64,000 nt of DNA. It comes from Lachnospiraceae bacterium UBA1201. Lineage in GTDB: Bacteria > Bacillota > Clostridia > Lachnospirales > Lachnospiraceae. The stretch spans positions 5,374-69,373 of the forward strand of contig DBXX01000016.1 in assembly GCA_002309675.1 (NCBI GenBank). The letters run 5' to 3'. Each line of letters begins with the position of its first letter. Position 1 is the first letter of the stretch. Shown here piece after piece: positions 8,920 to 52,435 of this stretch. The notes under the pieces are model-generated. The model made no database searches, was not told the DNA's origin, and was given only the letters and a program-made list of their open reading frames with translations. Made by a program: the position numbers and the translations under genes.

Positions 8920-9150
8920 CGGATAAAAAAATAGAGCCACCATCCCACATTGGGACGATTGCTCGCGGTACCACCCAAATTAGAAGGAAAACAATTCCTT
9001 CTCACTCGAACCCTTTAATGCAGGGGATACATCCGCCACATCGGGCATATTTCCCGTAGCAGCGAAGACTCCGATGCCGAAAATTCGATCCCATCCTCCT
9101 GCGACTTCCCACCTGCCGTCGCTCTCTGTGCGGTCTCAAATGCGATCTAC
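8920..9150 (-). promoter_or_regulatory. T-box leader (tRNA-sensing riboswitch) of pheST
   Basis: The minus strand carries the T-box motif AATTTGGGTGGTACCGCG (8964-8981). A terminator, GAGCAATCGTCCCA-ATG-TGGGATGGTGGCTC plus TATTTTTTT (about 8924-8963), overlaps it and competes with the antiterminator. An AGAGAG box lies near 9130-9140. A UUC triplet at 9008-9010 is a candidate Phe specifier, but I could not fold stem I confidently. The 5' boundary is approximate. Confidence 0.85.
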
Positions 9151-9168
9151 TGCTGCATCATCAACGTC

Positions 9169-9206
9169 AAAAAAACTATCCAGAGGAACTTCATGCCCCT
9201 CTGGAT
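9169..9206 (-). terminator. Intrinsic terminator ending the AT-rich ABC operon
   Basis: Minus strand reads ATCCAGAGG-GGCATGAAGTT-CCTCTGGAT followed by AGTTTTTTT. Confidence 0.75.
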
Positions 9207-23770: not shown

Positions 23771-24358
23771 TTATTCTGTTCCGAGCAGTTTATCCAGCAG
23801 ATCAGAAAGCGTCTGCTTCTCATCTTCGGTCAGGCGACCGAAGAGTTCATCCAGGAAGGAATCTCTCTCCGAGCGGATCTCTTCCGCGCGGACAGCGCCC
23901 ATTTCTGTAAGCTTCAGTAAGGTAGCGCGCTTATCGTTTTCGTCGATAACGCGAACCAGGTATCCGTCGTCCTCCAGACGGCTGACAACTTCCGACGCCG
24001 AGGATGCGTTGATGCCGGCTGCCGCCGCCAGATCCTTCTGGCGAATGCCTTCCGGATATTCGCTGATGATGGTCAGCAAACGCTCACGGCTCATGCCTCT
24101 GCCCATCGGGCCGGCAGGTCCCTTTCCGAAACCGGGACGACCGCAGCCGGGCTTTCCGCCCATACCGAACGGCGGCTGAAAAGGTGCCCTACCCGGACCT
24201 CCGAGGCCGGGTTTACCACCCATGCCTCCAAAGCCGGGCTGACCACCCATGCCAAAAGGCGGGCGGAACGGCGTCTGACCGCTCTCTTTCATCTTCATCA
24301 TACCAAGTACTTTGGGTAAACTCATCATTTTTCTGAAAAGATCTCTGTTACTTACCAT
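23771..24358 (-). CDS. MarR-family winged-helix regulator with approximately 90-aa Gly/Pro/Met-rich repeat N-terminal extension
   Basis: The C-terminal approximately 105 aa (RERLLTIISEYPEGIRQKDLAAAAGINASSASEVVSRLEDDGYLVRVIDENDKRATLLKLTEMG) form a MarR wHTH. The N-terminus contains three copies of PPFGMGG(Q/K)PG(F/L/C)G-type repeats. Confidence 0.75.
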   Translation of the reverse strand: MVSNRDLFRKMMSLPKVLGMMKMKESGQTPFRPPFGMGGQPGFGGMGGKPGLGGPGRAPFQPPFGMGGKPGCGRPGFGKGPAGPMGRGMSRERLLTIISEYPEGIRQKDLAAAAGINASSASEVVSRLEDDGYLVRVIDENDKRATLLKLTEMGAVRAEEIRSERDSFLDELFGRLTEDEKQTLSDLLDKLLGTE

Positions 24359-24385: not shown

Positions 24386-24432
24386 TACTTCGGTTCCGAA
24401 CTAATTATACTTCGGTTCCGAACTAATGTCAA
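24386..24432 (-). promoter_or_regulatory. Consensus promoter of the MarR gene with two 20-bp direct-repeat operators
   Basis: Minus strand has TTGACA (24427-24432), a 17-nt spacer, then TATAAT (24404-24409). The 20-bp unit tacttcggttccgaactaat occurs twice (24386-24405 and 24408-24427). Each copy contains the inverted repeat TTCGG-nn-CCGAA. One copy fills the -35/-10 spacer and the other covers the start-site region. Confidence 0.75.
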
Positions 24433-24474: not shown

Positions 24475-24511
24475 AAAAAAAACCGGGAAGCCTCATTGCG
24501 AAGGCTTCCCG
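24475..24511 (-). terminator. Strong intrinsic terminator (second terminator of the riboswitch unit)
   Basis: Minus strand reads CGGGAAGCCTT-CGCAATG-AGGCTTCCCG followed by GTTTTTTTT. Confidence 0.85.
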
Positions 24512-24703
24512 AAGCAGTCATAAAGAATTTTAGAAACGCAAATGCCCCGTTAAACTAGGGGAAAGTTAACGGAGCACTTGCATGTGTAAATAAGGAAGGG
24601 ATGTATACAAAAAAAGTCAGTAAACGATTTCAGGTTGAAGATCCGGTATTGACCGCATGTTACAGGCATTTTTTCGGGCCTGTATCGGAAGAAGAAAATG
24701 GGA
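24512..24703 (-). ncRNA. Candidate non-coding RNA segment between the two terminators (C-rich motifs, no credible ORF)
   Basis: Minus strand contains the hairpins ACAGGC-CCGAAAAAAT-GCCTGT and CCGTTAA-CTTTCCCCTAG-TTTAACGG (UCCCC in the loop), plus the single-stranded CATCCCTTCCTTAT. The longest ATG ORF I found on this strand is 39 codons with no SD. Confidence 0.35.
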
Positions 24704-24736
24704 TAAAAAAAACTCCCCGGCTAAATTCCGTGGAGA
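24704..24736 (-). terminator. Intrinsic terminator, likely the riboswitch expression platform
   Basis: Minus strand reads CTCCACGG-AATTTAG-CCGGGGAG (one mismatch) followed by TTTTTTTT. It begins about 15 nt after the aptamer. Confidence 0.7.
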
Positions 24737-24751
24737 CAAAAACATACAAAA

Positions 24752-24838
24752 ATAAATGATAGCAGCTGGCTGTCCACTTCACATGGACCCTATAGCTTTG
24801 CGTCCTTATCTTACGATAAGTTTGCCCCACATATCTTC
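24752..24838 (-). ncRNA. c-di-GMP-I (GEMM-I)-like riboswitch aptamer
   Basis: Minus strand reads GUGGGGCAAAC-UUAUC-GUAA-GAUAA-GGACGCAAAGCUAUAGGGUCCA-UGUGAAG-UGGACAGCCAGCUGCUAUC. The GGCAAAC element, the GNRA-capped first hairpin, the ACGCAAAGC junction and the second hairpin closing into ..GCCAGC.. follow the pattern of the Vc2-type class I aptamer. Confidence 0.7.
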
Positions 24839-24857
24839 TTCAATTTTCAACAACTTG

Positions 24858-24886
24858 ATTATACCAAGCATATTTCGTCTTGTCAA
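24858..24886 (-). promoter_or_regulatory. Perfect sigma-A consensus promoter driving the riboswitch unit
   Basis: Minus strand has TTGACA (24881-24886), a 17-nt spacer (agacgaaatatgcttgg), then TATAAT (24858-24863). It is preceded by an A/T-rich UP-like tract. Confidence 0.75.
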
Positions 24887-24916
24887 TAGGTTTTTTCAAA
24901 ATTTTTTAGAAAAATT

Positions 24917-26320
24917 TTAGATTTCCGTTTTTGCGGGTTTTGAAGCGAATTCTTTGAGCTTTCGATAGACATCACCCACGTGTTCGATCCCGATACATGT
25001 AACGTTTTTGGGGATCTGCAGCTGTTTTACGGCAACGGCCGGAAGCATGCAGAGCGAGAAGCCGAGCTTTGCGGCTTCGTTCAAACGCTGCTGCGCCATA
25101 GAGACCTGGCGCACCTCACCCGTCAGACCTACTTCGCCGAATACGAGCAGATTTTCCGGAATGACCAGATCACGGTAACTGGAGATCAATGCAGTCAGAA
25201 TGCCCAGATCCAACGACGGCTCTGCGATGCGCATACCGCCGGCGATATTGATGTACACGTCGTACTCATACATAGGCAGATTCAGTTTCTTCTCGAGCAC
25301 CGCGGTCAAAAGCTGCACGCGGTTCGGATCCGCTCCTGTCGTATTACGACGGGGCAGGTTCAAATTCGTGCGCGCAACGAGCGCCTGGATCTCCAAAAGA
25401 ACCGGACGCGTGCCTTCCATGGCACAGGTCACTACCGAACCGGGAGCCTCCACAGGACGCCCCTTAAGCATATACTCCGACGGATTTGCAACGGGAACCA
25501 GACCGGTCTCCTGCATTTCGAAGACACCGATCTCATTTGTCGAACCGAAACGATTTTTCACAGCGCGAAGCAGACGATAGGCCACGCTCCGCTCCCCTTC
25601 AAAATATAGAACAGTATCCACCATATGCTCGAGAACGCGAGGTCCCGCGACCACGCCTTCCTTCGTCACATGACCGACCAGGAAGATCGGGATTCCGAGG
25701 CCCTTACTGAGCATCAAAAATACGTTTGTCGCCTCACGCACCTGCGTTACACTGCCCGGTGAGGAAGGAACTTCCTCATGAAACATGGTCTGAATGGAGT
25801 CTATGATGACGATATCCGGGTTTTCCGAGCGAATGGTATCTTCGATAGGGCGCAGGTTCGTCTCGCAGTATAAAAGCATGGTATCGGAAAATGCACCCAT
25901 ACGGTCCGCGCGCATGCGGATCTGCTTCGCACTCTCCTCACCGGAAATATACAAGACGCGCTTACCGTCGGAAGCCAGGTTCCGGCACATCTGCAAAAGG
26001 ATCGTGGACTTTCCGATACCGGGATCACCCCCGACTAAAACCAGCGATCCGGGTACGATACCGCCGCCCAGGACACGGTCCAGCTCACTGATATGCGTGG
26101 AGATACGGGCATGCTCCGCCGTGGAAACCTCATTGATCGCCACCGGTTTCACAGGATCCAGGACCGGGCGGGAAATGCTTCCCTTCCCGGAACTCTTCGG
26201 TGCCTTCGGTTCCTCAACGAAACTGTTCCACTCTTTGCATGCCGGACACTGTCCGAGCCATTTGCTGCTTTCATATCCGCATTCCTTACAGAAGAATGCG
26301 ACGTCCTTTGCTTTCGCCAT
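24917..26320 (-). CDS. radA: DNA repair protein RadA/Sms
   Basis: From MAKAKDVAFFCKECGYESSKWLGQCPACKEWNSF (zinc finger): Walker A GGDPGIGKST, a KNRFG motif, and a Lon-like C-terminal domain. Confidence 0.95.
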   Translation of the reverse strand: MAKAKDVAFFCKECGYESSKWLGQCPACKEWNSFVEEPKAPKSSGKGSISRPVLDPVKPVAINEVSTAEHARISTHISELDRVLGGGIVPGSLVLVGGDPGIGKSTILLQMCRNLASDGKRVLYISGEESAKQIRMRADRMGAFSDTMLLYCETNLRPIEDTIRSENPDIVIIDSIQTMFHEEVPSSPGSVTQVREATNVFLMLSKGLGIPIFLVGHVTKEGVVAGPRVLEHMVDTVLYFEGERSVAYRLLRAVKNRFGSTNEIGVFEMQETGLVPVANPSEYMLKGRPVEAPGSVVTCAMEGTRPVLLEIQALVARTNLNLPRRNTTGADPNRVQLLTAVLEKKLNLPMYEYDVYINIAGGMRIAEPSLDLGILTALISSYRDLVIPENLLVFGEVGLTGEVRQVSMAQQRLNEAAKLGFSLCMLPAVAVKQLQIPKNVTCIGIEHVGDVYRKLKEFASKPAKTEI

Positions 26321-26405
26321 TTGAACTCCCCAAAATGTCAGATCTCGCACAAAACCATGCGCGGATCATTCTTTTAACGAATGATCCGCCGCATAGAGAG
26401 CGATA

Positions 26406-26822
26406 TTATTCATGCTTCTTGATCGTTACTTCGACCGGCTTTTCCTGCTCCAATTCGATATTGAGCGCAAGCTTTCCTCCGAGGTTGGTGCGCAGCAGAT
26501 CTACCTGCTTATTGTCCAGATATACCTCGTAGTCTGTCTCATCCTCGAGCATCACGATGACCTGTGCGGTCTTCGGACCCTCGACTGTGAAACTAACGCC
26601 GTCTTTTGTGGTCGTGTAATCAAACACGGACGTACCCGGAACCGACTCGTACGCAAACAATCCGTTGCGCTCCAGCTTCGTGATCTCTTCGAAGGTCTTT
26701 ACCTTGAAAATATCTCCGCCAAAGGAAAAGCCGTCCAGCTTTGCCTTCTGTGCGAGGGTATAGTCCCCGAAGCAAAGTTTTCCGTCTGCCTGCTGCTTGA
26801 TCAATTCTTTTACGACTGCCAT
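26406..26822 (-). CDS. Hypothetical cytoplasmic protein (138 aa) between clpC and radA
   Basis: The ORF is clean with matching codon style. It has no signal peptide, and I recognise no motif. Confidence 0.5.
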   Translation of the reverse strand: MAVVKELIKQQADGKLCFGDYTLAQKAKLDGFSFGGDIFKVKTFEEITKLERNGLFAYESVPGTSVFDYTTTKDGVSFTVEGPKTAQVIVMLEDETDYEVYLDNKQVDLLRTNLGGKLALNIELEQEKPVEVTIKKHE

Positions 26823-51370: not shown

Positions 51371-52435
51371 TCACGCTCCTCTTCGTTTCTTTCCGGATAT
51401 CCGATAATATTCATCTTTATCGCTGTACATATAGGTCTCAGCCTTCGTGGTCAATGTATTGATCTCGACCATCTCCGCCGGACTGTTGGAAAAACCGACT
51501 GCAACCTGATATCCCGCTTCCCGCACCTGCTTTTTCAGCTGGCGAACCTTTTCTTCGATCTTTGCATCGCTCCAATCCACCGTGTAGGCCAGGAATTCAT
51601 CACCGCCGATACGATAGGTATCCTTCTTTCCGAAGTTTTCCTGAACGAAATGCGCGATGGTCTGCAACATGATATCTCCGGCCCTATGGCCTTCCGTATC
51701 ATTCAGATCATGCAAACCATTGACATCGATGTAAACACATCCCAGGCTCTCCCTGCACCGGCGTGTGTACTCAGCGAGATGCCACTCGTACGAGTTACGG
51801 TTATTCAGACCGGTCAGCTGGTCCTTCTCGCTCATGTATTGCAGCCGCTGTTCCAGAATAAAACCATTGACCTTAACACGAACGATGAAAACGATGCTGA
51901 CGATCGCCAGCAGTCCGAACATGACAGCGTTCGAAACATCCGCCATCAGAACCTTCCCGGACTTTGTATTAACCGCAGCAACCAAATAAACGGTCACATA
52001 GAAAACCAAGGCAGAAATAAGCCGGATGGGCTTATCGATGAACAAAAGCGGCAGGAACAGCATCAACACTACAAACGTTACTGTCTGCTCACCCGGACGG
52101 CACAGCGTACCCATCAGGATACCATAGATCATGAACAGGGAAATCGCTGCATAGATCGTAAAATATGTGAATTTCAGATGAGTCCGGCATATGCCGGCGA
52201 GTACAAATATGATCAGGGAACCGAATACGCCGAAAATGAAAACGACCCAGGCCTCCGACATCGCACGGATAACAAAAACATACAGGAGCGTCATGATCGA
52301 TGTCAAAACGAATGCAACCAAAGAATAGATCGTCAATGTGACGACATTCGCGTACTCGATCTTTTCTTTTACGGAGCGATAAACTTCTTTATCAACATCC
52401 GCATAAAAGAGTGCGTGTTTGATCCTCTCCAGCAT
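51371..52435 (-). CDS. Membrane-anchored diguanylate cyclase (GGDEF domain)
   Basis: There are about six N-terminal TMs. The GGDEF domain follows, with SEKDQLTGLNNRNSY and the active site RIGGDEFLAY. Confidence 0.9.
   Translation of the reverse strand: MLERIKHALFYADVDKEVYRSVKEKIEYANVVTLTIYSLVAFVLTSIMTLLYVFVIRAMSEAWVVFIFGVFGSLIIFVLAGICRTHLKFTYFTIYAAISLFMIYGILMGTLCRPGEQTVTFVVLMLFLPLLFIDKPIRLISALVFYVTVYLVAAVNTKSGKVLMADVSNAVMFGLLAIVSIVFIVRVKVNGFILEQRLQYMSEKDQLTGLNNRNSYEWHLAEYTRRCRESLGCVYIDVNGLHDLNDTEGHRAGDIMLQTIAHFVQENFGKKDTYRIGGDEFLAYTVDWSDAKIEEKVRQLKKQVREAGYQVAVGFSNSPAEMVEINTLTTKAETYMYSDKDEYYRISGKKRRGA

Follow-up and report, generated by a model that had tools for sequence, protein, structure and literature searches.

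In the rumen Lachnospiraceae bacterium UBA1201, a canonical c-di-GMP-I riboswitch aptamer stands not before a protein gene but before a conserved small-RNA gene, and we infer that it controls, by transcription termination, how much of that small RNA (sRNA) is made. Sister lineages carry the same sRNA behind a plain promoter and without any riboswitch, so the switch looks like a recent add-on. We put the probability of this reading at roughly 0.7.

The aptamer was found in a 64,000-nucleotide stretch of DNA, hereafter the window (GenBank assembly GCA_002309675.1, contig DBXX01000016.1, positions 5,374 to 69,373). A preliminary description, made from the sequence alone, had claimed that the minus strand after radA holds a perfect promoter, a c-di-GMP-I-like aptamer, a hairpin followed by U8, and a very strong second terminator, with no open reading frame (ORF) of 60 aa or more and with a MarR-like gene that has its own promoter beyond. 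What was observed there is real: each of these elements is present. The interpretation, that the aptamer gates a noncoding transcript rather than an mRNA, is also supported, although it can be sharpened. What had been missed is that the 190 nt between the terminators is not an anonymous transcript, and “orphan” and “no gene” should therefore read “riboswitch-controlled sRNA gene.” The claim that this is rare for the class is fair, but the arrangement is not unprecedented.

A canonical aptamer in a unit without a protein gene

The elements of the unit are collected in Table 1. The promoter starts 30 nt after the radA stop codon (24919..24917), with no terminator hairpin between the two, and the A/T-rich tract in that gap is conserved in two of the homologous units, those at loci L002 and L028 (L numbers denote the loci compared with the window). 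The unit is not an assembly artefact, because it occurs in at least nine independent assemblies. The sequences at L002, L028 and L044-L050 come from sheep and buffalo rumen.

Table 1. Features of the riboswitch–sRNA unit and its surroundings (window coordinates)
Position	Strand	Feature	Composition and remarks
24887..24916	-	A/T-rich tract	UP-element-like; between the radA stop codon and the -35 hexamer
24858..24886	-	Sigma-70 promoter	TTGACA-17-TATAAT, 12/12 matches, TG extension; inferred (unmapped) transcription start about 24851
24834..24841	-	Leader motif	GAAGAAGA, complementary to UCUUCUUC
24758..24836	-	c-di-GMP-I (GEMM-I) aptamer	P1 GAUA/UAUC; GGCAAAC; P2 CUUAUC-GUAA-GAUAAG; ACGCAAAGC junction; P3 GGGUCCA/UGGAC
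24705..24735	-	Terminator 1, the expression platform	CUCCACGG-AAUUUAG-CCGGGGAG (24735..24713) plus U8 (24712..24705); 5' arm can instead pair with the aptamer 5' strand GUGGGGC as an antiterminator
24688..24695	-	UCUUCUUC motif	Just after the terminator 1 U-tract; partner of GAAGAAGA
24644..24683	-	Variable spacer	Hairpin A, ACAGGC/GCCUGU (24683..24662); hairpin B (24655..24644)
24532..24620	-	Conserved sRNA core	CUGACU..UUGUAUA, seed, hairpin C, short U-run
24584..24603	-	Candidate seed	CAUCCCUUCCUUAUUUACAC, C/U-rich, anti-Shine-Dalgarno-like
24538..24581	-	Hairpin C	17-bp stem; loop UUUCCCCUA (24564..24556); probable intrinsic terminator of the sRNA in L051, L052 and L044
24475..24512	-	Terminator 2	Hairpin of 12 pairs (24512..24483) plus U8 (24482..24475); strong back-up that insulates the MarR-like gene
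24601..24759	+	Opposite-strand 52-codon ORF	Apparent SD; not a gene
24745..24617	-	42-codon ATG ORF	Not conserved
24432..24404	-	Promoter of the MarR-like gene	12/12 matches
24358..23771	-	MarR-like gene	117 nt after terminator 2

The aptamer is a genuine, canonical member of the c-di-GMP-I class. The Rfam model RF01051 matches over its full length (positions 1-87 of 87) at 57.9 bits against a gathering score of 35 (E = 1e-8 for the whole window), and nine homologous units score 58.4-63.4 bits. All of the conserved helices and junctions are present, and across five variants 98.7% of helix cells are paired, with one compensatory change (A-U to G-C) in P3. The GGC specificity variant was considered as well, because its model, RF03167, ranked first by E-value in a permissive scan; however, its score lies below that family's own cut-off (55 against 59 bits), and the sequence reads GGACGCAAAGC where the GGC-variant consensus has GGACGCGAAGC, giving the canonical A at the position equivalent to A47 of Vc2 (the G20 and C92 equivalents are assigned from the alignment only). 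A GGDEF-domain protein is encoded in the same window, which shows that the cell can make the ligand, although binding itself is inferred from sequence.

Might the unit nevertheless serve a protein? No ORF of 60 aa or more lies downstream of the aptamer on its strand. The 39-codon ATG ORF of the preliminary description exists, but so, as a small correction, do a 42-codon ATG ORF and a 56-codon GTG ORF that overlaps the aptamer, and none of these is conserved. On the opposite strand, a 52-codon ORF has AAGGAAGGG directly before its ATG, and because c-di-GMP-I riboswitches precede antitoxin RNAs in Clostridioides difficile (PMC7699646), one could imagine a type I toxin with the riboswitch-driven RNA as its antitoxin. 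We find this very unlikely. Among seven variants, ORFs on both strands change frame or length or vanish; the 52-codon ORF is frameshifted in L002 and L044, and no ORF of 15 aa or more remains on either strand in L051 or L052. A search of 5.8 billion protein clusters returned no homologue of the 52-aa sequence, which also has no hydrophobic segment of the kind that type I toxins have. Conservation is at the nucleotide level and includes synonymous positions, and the SD-like string is simply the complement of the invariant seed.

It is equally unlikely that the riboswitch is a long 5' leader of the MarR-like gene, reached by read-through of both terminators, even though that gene lies on the same strand and close by. 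Terminator 2 is strong (-20.7 kcal/mol, z = -4.3); compensatory changes keep its stem in L002 and L044, and it is truncated at a breakpoint in L045. The MarR-like gene has its own promoter with twin operator repeats, and the identical promoter and operator follow a symporter gene, with no riboswitch, at L001, L003 and L004, where the unit is absent. Contigs with identical RadA carry different genes after the unit, and in L044-L050 the unit is followed by other genes.

A conserved small RNA, with and without the switch

The core of the sRNA recurs in two sister lineages whose RadA is 69-71% identical (L051 and L052/L053). There, it lies after radA and directly behind its own TTGACA-17-TAnAAT promoter, and in L051 and L052 the RNA runs for about 130-145 nt to hairpin C plus a U-run. 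No riboswitch of any Rfam class was found in the L051 and L052 leaders, even at E <= 0.5. A covariance model of the core (R1) scores 136 bits in the window, 104 in L052 and 93 in L051, and it found no other copy in the window or in 22 other loci examined. Among the window, L002 and L028, which differ by about 8% elsewhere, a 120-nt block (24647..24528) has only one variable site.

Two elements of the core are invariant across the deeper split. The C/U-rich seed is identical in all 13 copies, including L051, L052 and L053, and its segment UCCCUUCCUU is predicted to be unpaired with a probability of 0.97-1.0 in four of five folded contexts and of 0.65 in L044. The second is the C-rich loop of hairpin C. 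The hairpin itself folds at -26.8 kcal/mol (z = -7.4); 99% of the cells of its 17 pairs are paired, and 5 pairs carry compensatory double changes, whereas slid controls give 27-44% paired. Only three independent lineages carry the sRNA, however, and thus, the covariation rests on few events. In the spacer, the stem of hairpin A is kept while its loop varies, and hairpin B is re-formed in a different register in L028 and L044.

How widely is this RNA distributed? Loci in which RadA is about 65% identical, along with L054 and L060, lack the RNA, and several carry a tRNA gene in that slot. A metagenome scan with a two-seed DNA pattern gave 35 hits, of which only one (L028) is a true homologue, the rest being chance matches with other spacings. 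The seed gave no match in viral contigs, and the sRNA region (24518..24700) gave none in plasmids or phages, so that no mobile-element origin was found. A permissive scan of the 190-nt region against Rfam 15 gave only chance-level matches, all at 22 bits or less and far below their cut-offs; the weak resemblance to Xanthomonas sX13 scores 17.9 bits against a gathering score of 50, and RsaE gives no hit. Nothing was found in the L051 or L052 sRNA regions. Short unpaired or loop-displayed C-rich motifs suited to pairing with G-rich ribosome-binding sites, a stand-alone promoter and an intrinsic terminator recall the C-rich-seed sRNAs of Firmicutes, such as RsaE/RoxS, but sequence and architecture are unrelated, and this appears to be a new, narrowly distributed family.

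How the switch might work

What the comparisons show is the identity of the aptamer, the absence of coding capacity, the independence of the unit from its neighboring genes, the conservation and covariation of the sRNA as an RNA, and its existence without the riboswitch in sister lineages; what we infer is ligand binding, the direction of the switch, action in trans and the kind of targets, and the start site, termination at terminator 1 and read-through are likewise predictions from sequence. In our view, the promoter starts an RNA whose first ~100 nt fold into the aptamer. When c-di-GMP is bound, the 5' strand of the aptamer (GAUA-UGUGGGGC) would be locked into P1 and the ligand-binding junction, terminator 1 would form, and a terminated RNA of ~147 nt would result. 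Without ligand, that strand, with GUGGGG at 24830..24825, would pair with the 5' arm of terminator 1, with CUCCAC at 24735..24730, as an antiterminator, and RNA polymerase would read on to give an RNA of ~320-377 nt that carries the sRNA core and ends at hairpin C plus a U-run or at terminator 2. That is, the folding predicts an OFF switch, in which c-di-GMP causes termination and less sRNA.

The expression platform is the least secure part of this picture. Terminator 1 is real but weak (-9.0 kcal/mol, z = -1.46, one A.G mismatch), and a simple terminator scan missed it, although its stem is invariant in five variants. When its 3' arm is withheld in folding, the antiterminator is the best fold in all four variants examined, and it lies within about 2 kcal/mol of the terminator state in three of them; in the window's own sequence, however, the terminator state is better by 7.8 kcal/mol, and the OFF model therefore rests on kinetics and on the other variants. 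The seven antiterminator pairs are 100% paired in five variants, but the support comes from two one-sided changes that keep pairing, with no double compensatory change. Nor does the model explain the leader motif and its complement after terminator 1, which pair in the minimum-free-energy fold of the read-through RNA and are invariant in all riboswitch-bearing variants, although the spacer around the downstream motif has indels.

Could the logic be the opposite, with terminator 1 forming by default and c-di-GMP promoting read-through? The full-length minimum-free-energy fold of the window sequence already contains aptamer-like helices plus terminator 1 without ligand, and ON-type c-di-GMP riboswitches exist in other bacteria. 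We nevertheless consider this unlikely. About 22 nt of A/U-rich linker separates the aptamer from terminator 1, and ligand binding therefore cannot sequester a terminator arm directly; the only strong competitor for the 5' arm of the terminator is the 5' strand of the aptamer, which ligand binding should lock away. Most class I c-di-GMP riboswitches in Clostridia are reported to be OFF switches (PMC7699646).

Still less likely is that the terminated aptamer RNA is itself the main product, an abundant c-di-GMP buffer or sponge with the sRNA as a mere passenger. The strong promoter would allow such abundance, and Bdellovibrio bacteriovorus merRNA, a riboswitch-containing RNA with no conserved downstream ORF and an apparently strong promoter, was proposed to store c-di-GMP (PMC3627812). 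However, merRNA has no separately conserved sRNA module, whereas here, the downstream module is conserved on its own, and the same strong promoter drives the sRNA alone in L051 and L052, so that promoter strength belongs to the sRNA gene and not to the aptamer. A promoter scan found no promoter-like site between terminator 1 and the sRNA core (one weak 9/12 hit lies inside the aptamer and, by eye, is not conserved in L028), and sRNA output must therefore depend on read-through. The sponge idea does not explain the regulated terminator.

What might the sRNA do? It displays an unpaired C/U-rich stretch (UCCCUUCCUUAU) and a C-rich loop, and we infer that it acts in trans by pairing with purine-rich ribosome-binding regions of mRNAs, so that low c-di-GMP would repress a set of targets post-transcriptionally. 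Within the 64-kb window alone (no whole genome was searched), the best duplex with the seed is -25.2 kcal/mol, whereas the best values for ten shuffled seeds range from -23.3 to -28.8 kcal/mol; no target in the window pairs with the seed better than shuffled seeds do. It is possible, though we think it unlikely, that the sRNA instead sequesters a protein or serves as a structural RNA: conservation covers about 105 nt with no substitutions within the genus, more than a short seed needs, no target was found in the window, and the B12-riboswitch-controlled RNAs EutX and Rli55 act by protein sequestration (cited in PMC13501541). Against this, the two invariant elements are short, unpaired and C/U-rich, which is the usual signature of pairing seeds in Firmicute sRNAs, and the only long helix covaries freely.

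Precedents and meaning

The closest precedent is in C. difficile, where the c-di-GMP-I riboswitches Cdi1_4 and Cdi1_5, with their own promoter, precede the noncoding RNAs RCd11 and RCd12 (Peltier et al. 2020, PMC7699646; reviewed in PMC11477304). The mapped RNAs there, of 140 nt (terminated) and 400 nt (read-through), resemble the products predicted here, and the read-through form decreases at high c-di-GMP, which is the direction that we predict. RCd11/12, however, are cis-antisense antitoxins of prophage type I toxin–antitoxin modules and have a stronger second promoter downstream of the riboswitch; here, we found no toxin ORF, no second promoter and no prophage context, and the RNA is a chromosomal, lineage-conserved sRNA that exists without the riboswitch in relatives. 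The B12-riboswitch-controlled RNAs EutX of Enterococcus faecalis and Rli55 of Listeria monocytogenes share the logic of a riboswitch and terminator that decide whether a full-length regulatory RNA is made, with ligand leading to a short, inactive RNA, but their ligand and aptamer class differ, and they act by sequestering the EutV protein through specific hairpins (PMC13501541). Here, the functional elements look like C/U-rich pairing seeds.

A further reading, which we offer only tentatively and consider somewhat less likely than not, is that a preexisting, strongly expressed sRNA gene with an anti-Shine-Dalgarno-like seed captured a c-di-GMP-I riboswitch into its 5' leader in one rumen Lachnospiraceae genus. 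The second messenger would thereby control a post-transcriptional regulon through a trans-acting RNA, and an OFF switch combined with a repressor sRNA would amount to net activation of the targets by c-di-GMP. The sister lineages, which in this view keep the ancestral riboswitch-less form, would provide a natural before-and-after pair for how riboswitches are recruited to noncoding genes.

c-di-GMP riboswitches are almost always read as direct controllers of the adjacent protein genes, such as those for flagella, adhesins and pili, and a unit of this kind would be missed by annotation pipelines that assign riboswitch function from the next ORF, which here would wrongly be the MarR-like regulator. 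Although the hosts are uncultured rumen bacteria, the locus adds an apparently undescribed sRNA family and a concrete riboswitch–sRNA fusion. It also shows modular evolution directly, in that the same sRNA core sits behind the same kind of promoter with the sensor in one genus and without it in two sister lineages. A riboswitch that meters a conserved sRNA, rather than a neighboring gene, would extend second-messenger signaling to distant genes through RNA–RNA pairing.

Anatomy of the unit downstream of radA

Each element of the transcription unit lies on the minus strand, and the unit opens just past the radA stop codon, where a 30-nt A/T-rich tract leads into a perfect promoter with a TG extension (the coordinates of this and every other feature are collected in the table). 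The observation made in the preliminary description, of an aptamer with its own promoter, two terminators and no gene, is confirmed. Rfam's c-di-GMP-I model matches the aptamer end to end. A permissive scan did rank the GGC specificity variant (RF03167) first by E-value, but that score (55 bits) is below the variant family's own cut-off (59), and the diagnostic junction reads GGACGCAAAGC, with the canonical A where the variant consensus has G. That is, this is an ordinary class I c-di-GMP aptamer, which satisfies each class feature that we examined, with the binding of ligand itself inferred from sequence alone.

The two terminators are very different from each other. The first is a weak hairpin, CUCCACGG-AAUUUAG-CCGGGGAG, with one A.G mismatch, which explains why a simple terminator scan missed it; the second is strong. 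There is no terminator between the radA stop codon and the riboswitch promoter, such that read-through from the clpC-radA operon would enter the aptamer, and terminator 1 may also end that operon (the more distant locus L051, discussed below, does have a hairpin plus U-run after radA). The preliminary description had stated that no ORF of 60 aa or more lies on this strand and that the best ATG ORF has 39 codons, and this is essentially right, although there is also a 42-codon ATG ORF as well as a 56-codon GTG ORF that overlaps the aptamer.

Coordinates of the riboswitch unit and of other features noted in the window
Feature	Strand	Position	Details
T-box leader	-	8948-9173	full length; RF00230, 102.8 bits against a gathering score of 93
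MarR-like gene	-	24358..23771	Pfam MarR, hit only at residues 93-145
Direct 19-nt repeats TTAGTTCGGAACCGAAGTA	-	24426..24408 and 24404..24386	overlap the MarR-like promoter; each contains the palindrome TTCGGAACCGAA
Promoter of the MarR-like gene	-	24432..24404	12/12 matches
Terminator 2	-	24512..24483, plus U8 to 24475	-20.7 kcal/mol, z = -4.3
Hairpin C	-	24581..24538	-26.8 kcal/mol, z = -7.4
Block with a single variable site	-	24647..24528	120 nt
Opposite-strand ORF	+	24601-24759	52 codons; apparent SD (AAGGAAGGG-ATG)
Post-terminator motif UCUUCUUC	-	24688-24695	
Terminator 1	-	24735..24713, plus U8 24712..24705	-9.0 kcal/mol, z = -1.46
c-di-GMP-I aptamer	-	24836..24758	RF01051, 57.9 bits against a gathering score of 35
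Leader motif GAAGAAGA	-	24834-24841	
Inferred transcription start	-	near 24851	
Promoter of the unit	-	24886..24858	TTGACA-17-TATAAT
Interval without a terminator	-	24887-24919	
radA	-	26350..24917	stop codon TAA at 24919..24917
ORF between clpC and radA	-	26406-26822; also L044:2505-2921 and L051:2581-2991	136-138 aa; no Pfam domain
GGDEF-domain protein	-	52435..51371	354 aa; PF00990, 70.5 bits; motif RIGGDEF
Site of gene-content change		24475-24512; also L044:4860-4900 and L045 about 4828	

Neighboring genes and reading frames

Does the unit control the gene that comes next? It does not. A genome scan with the MarR-like protein found four close relatives in rumen Lachnospiraceae MAGs (loci L001 to L004). 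In L001 and L004, the same promoter, the same twin repeats and the same gene sit directly after a different upstream gene (read as an amino-acid symporter) with no riboswitch, and L003 shows the same junction with no room for the unit, although its contig begins only 168 nt upstream of the MarR-like gene. Only L002 has radA, the riboswitch unit and the MarR-like gene in that order. The repeats, which are probably an autoregulatory operator, are conserved in L001-L004 with one substitution in L003, and the protein itself has an ~85-aa Gly/Pro-rich N-terminal extension ahead of the MarR domain.

Contigs that encode the identical RadA protein (P0001; loci numbered from L044) all carry the unit right after radA, but what follows differs, and the slot after the unit is a hotspot for gene-content change. 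Contigs with identical RadA carry MarR plus GNAT, a remnant of the MarR-like gene plus a GNAT gene (in L044 and L047, and also seen at the unit's end in L050) or opposite-strand genes (DUF4417 in L045 and L046, with an IS110 transposase in L045), with the junction in L045, L046 and L049 at a breakpoint inside the loop of terminator 2. The unit therefore travels with radA and is indifferent to what comes after it. On the other side of radA, the conserved ORF that lies between clpC and radA in the window is also found in the contigs labelled P0001, P0003 and P0004 as well as in several more distant RadA loci.

Neither is there a hidden protein gene. Across seven distinct variants, every ORF of 15 codons or more on either strand changes frame, start or length. 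The plus-strand 52-codon ORF, with its textbook-looking Shine-Dalgarno sequence, is one that gene callers might pick up, but it is frameshifted in L002 and again in L044, most of its substitutions in L028 (a homologous metagenomic locus) change the amino acid, and no opposite-strand ORF of 15 aa or more remains in the two distant lineages described in the next section. It has no homologue among 5.8 billion protein clusters. Its "SD + ATG" is the reverse complement of an invariant RNA segment, the mirror image of what we call the anti-SD-like seed, and it is not conserved as a reading frame.

A conserved RNA core with and without the riboswitch

What, then, is in the 190 nt between the two terminators? 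The window, L002 and L028 are about 92% identical over 4 kb of flanking genes, and within the unit, the P3 helix of the aptamer, the linker, the spacer after terminator 1 and terminator 2 all carry substitutions and indels, some of which are compensatory. In contrast, a 120-nt block has a single variable site. The decisive result came from RadA synteny. Loci L051 (RadA 71% identical) and L052/L053 (69%) have no c-di-GMP riboswitch, and yet right after radA they have their own TTGACA-17-TACAAT or TATAAT promoter, and about 65-75 nt further on lies the same core: CUGACUAGAUUUUGUAUA, then CAUCCCUUCCUUAUUUACAC, then a long hairpin with loop UUUCCCCUA and then a U-run.

The 20-nt C/U-rich segment is identical in all 13 copies, and UCCCUUCCUU is predicted to be unpaired, with P = 0.97-1.0 in four of five folded contexts and 0.65 in L044. 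The hairpin keeps its lower stem and loop but rewrites its upper stem, which is CUCCGUUAAC/GUUUAACGGGG in the window, GUCCGCCUC/GAGAGCGGGC in L051 and ACCCAUUCUC/GAGAAUGGGU in L052. On a model-guided alignment, 99% of cells are paired and 5 of 17 pairs carry changes on both sides, whereas slid controls give 27-44% paired. This is the signature of selection on an RNA, in the same orientation as the riboswitch.

The family appears to be narrow. No Rfam family matches it, no further copy was found in the window or in 22 other loci examined, and nothing similar was found in viral contigs, plasmids or phages. Loci with RadA about 65% identical, plus two others (L054 and L060), lack it, and several carry a tRNA gene in that slot (on the opposite strand in L055 and L057 and truncated in L059, all three being relatives with RadA about 65% identical). 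We are left with three sampled lineages, with the riboswitch in one of them.

Predicted switching and known riboswitch-controlled RNAs

Read from its 5' end, the unit consists of the promoter, the leader GAAGAAGA, the aptamer, a 22-nt A/U-rich linker, terminator 1, UCUUCUUC, two small variable hairpins, the sRNA core with its seed and hairpin C and, finally, terminator 2. The leader and post-terminator motifs are perfectly complementary and are invariant in all riboswitch-bearing variants, although the spacer around the second has indels, and in the predicted fold of the read-through RNA they close off the riboswitch domain; one might imagine a processing site or a folding insulator. The predicted RNAs are about 147 nt (terminated at terminator 1) and about 320-377 nt (read-through), sizes close to the 140-nt and 400-nt species mapped for Clostridioides difficile Cdi1_4/RCd11 (PMC7699646). 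No second promoter lies between terminator 1 and the core, and in this genus, sRNA output would therefore have to pass through the riboswitch decision.

In which direction might the switch work? When the 3' arm of terminator 1 is withheld, as at the moment of decision, the best fold in all four distinct variants pairs the aptamer's 5' strand (GAUA-UGUGGGGC) with the terminator's 5' arm and loop, making an antiterminator. In L002, L028 and L044, this state is within about 2 kcal/mol of the terminator state, but in the window sequence, the terminator state is favored by 7.8 kcal/mol. The seven core antiterminator pairs are intact in all five variants, and the only two variable positions change U-A to U-G and G-U to G-C, which is consistent with pairing but is weak evidence. 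Because the aptamer's 5' strand forms P1 and the ligand-contacting junction, ligand binding should withdraw it and let terminator 1 form. We therefore infer, with about 60% confidence, an OFF switch: high c-di-GMP would give the short RNA, and low c-di-GMP would give the sRNA. The ligand would be at hand, in that the GGDEF-domain protein encoded in the same window, a candidate diguanylate cyclase, indicates that the organism makes c-di-GMP.

The invariant, accessible C/U-rich segment and the C-rich loop of the sRNA suggest pairing with purine-rich ribosome-binding regions, although the 64-kb window, the only sequence in which we sought targets, contains no duplex better than shuffled seeds give. 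The reader should keep apart what the sequences show (the identity of the aptamer, the lack of a conserved reading frame, the independence from the next gene and the conservation and covariation of the RNA core) from what we infer, which includes ligand binding, the transcript ends, the direction of the switch and any pairing with mRNAs.

The arrangement belongs to the small group of riboswitch-controlled noncoding RNAs. The nearest case is C. difficile Cdi1_4/Cdi1_5, which precede the antitoxin RNAs RCd11/RCd12, prophage-borne cis-antisense antitoxins with a stronger internal promoter (PMC7699646; PMC11477304); in the present unit, a toxin ORF and a second promoter were looked for and not found. 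EutX and Rli55 share the logic but use a B12 aptamer and sequester a protein (listed in PMC13501541). Bdellovibrio merRNA shares the c-di-GMP aptamer and the lack of an ORF, and it was proposed to be a sponge (PMC3627812). A sponge role for the 147-nt product is not excluded here, but it does not explain the predicted regulated terminator or the conserved downstream RNA.

The preliminary description had proposed that the aptamer gates a noncoding transcript rather than an mRNA, and that interpretation is supported and can be extended. What differs from the earlier cases is that the riboswitch is predicted to gate a conserved sRNA gene that exists without the sensor in sister lineages, and that sRNA represents an apparently undescribed, narrowly distributed family. 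The review that covers the C. difficile cases also lists an unexplained "orphan" c-di-GMP-I riboswitch in that species (PMC11477304), and such units may be under-recognized.
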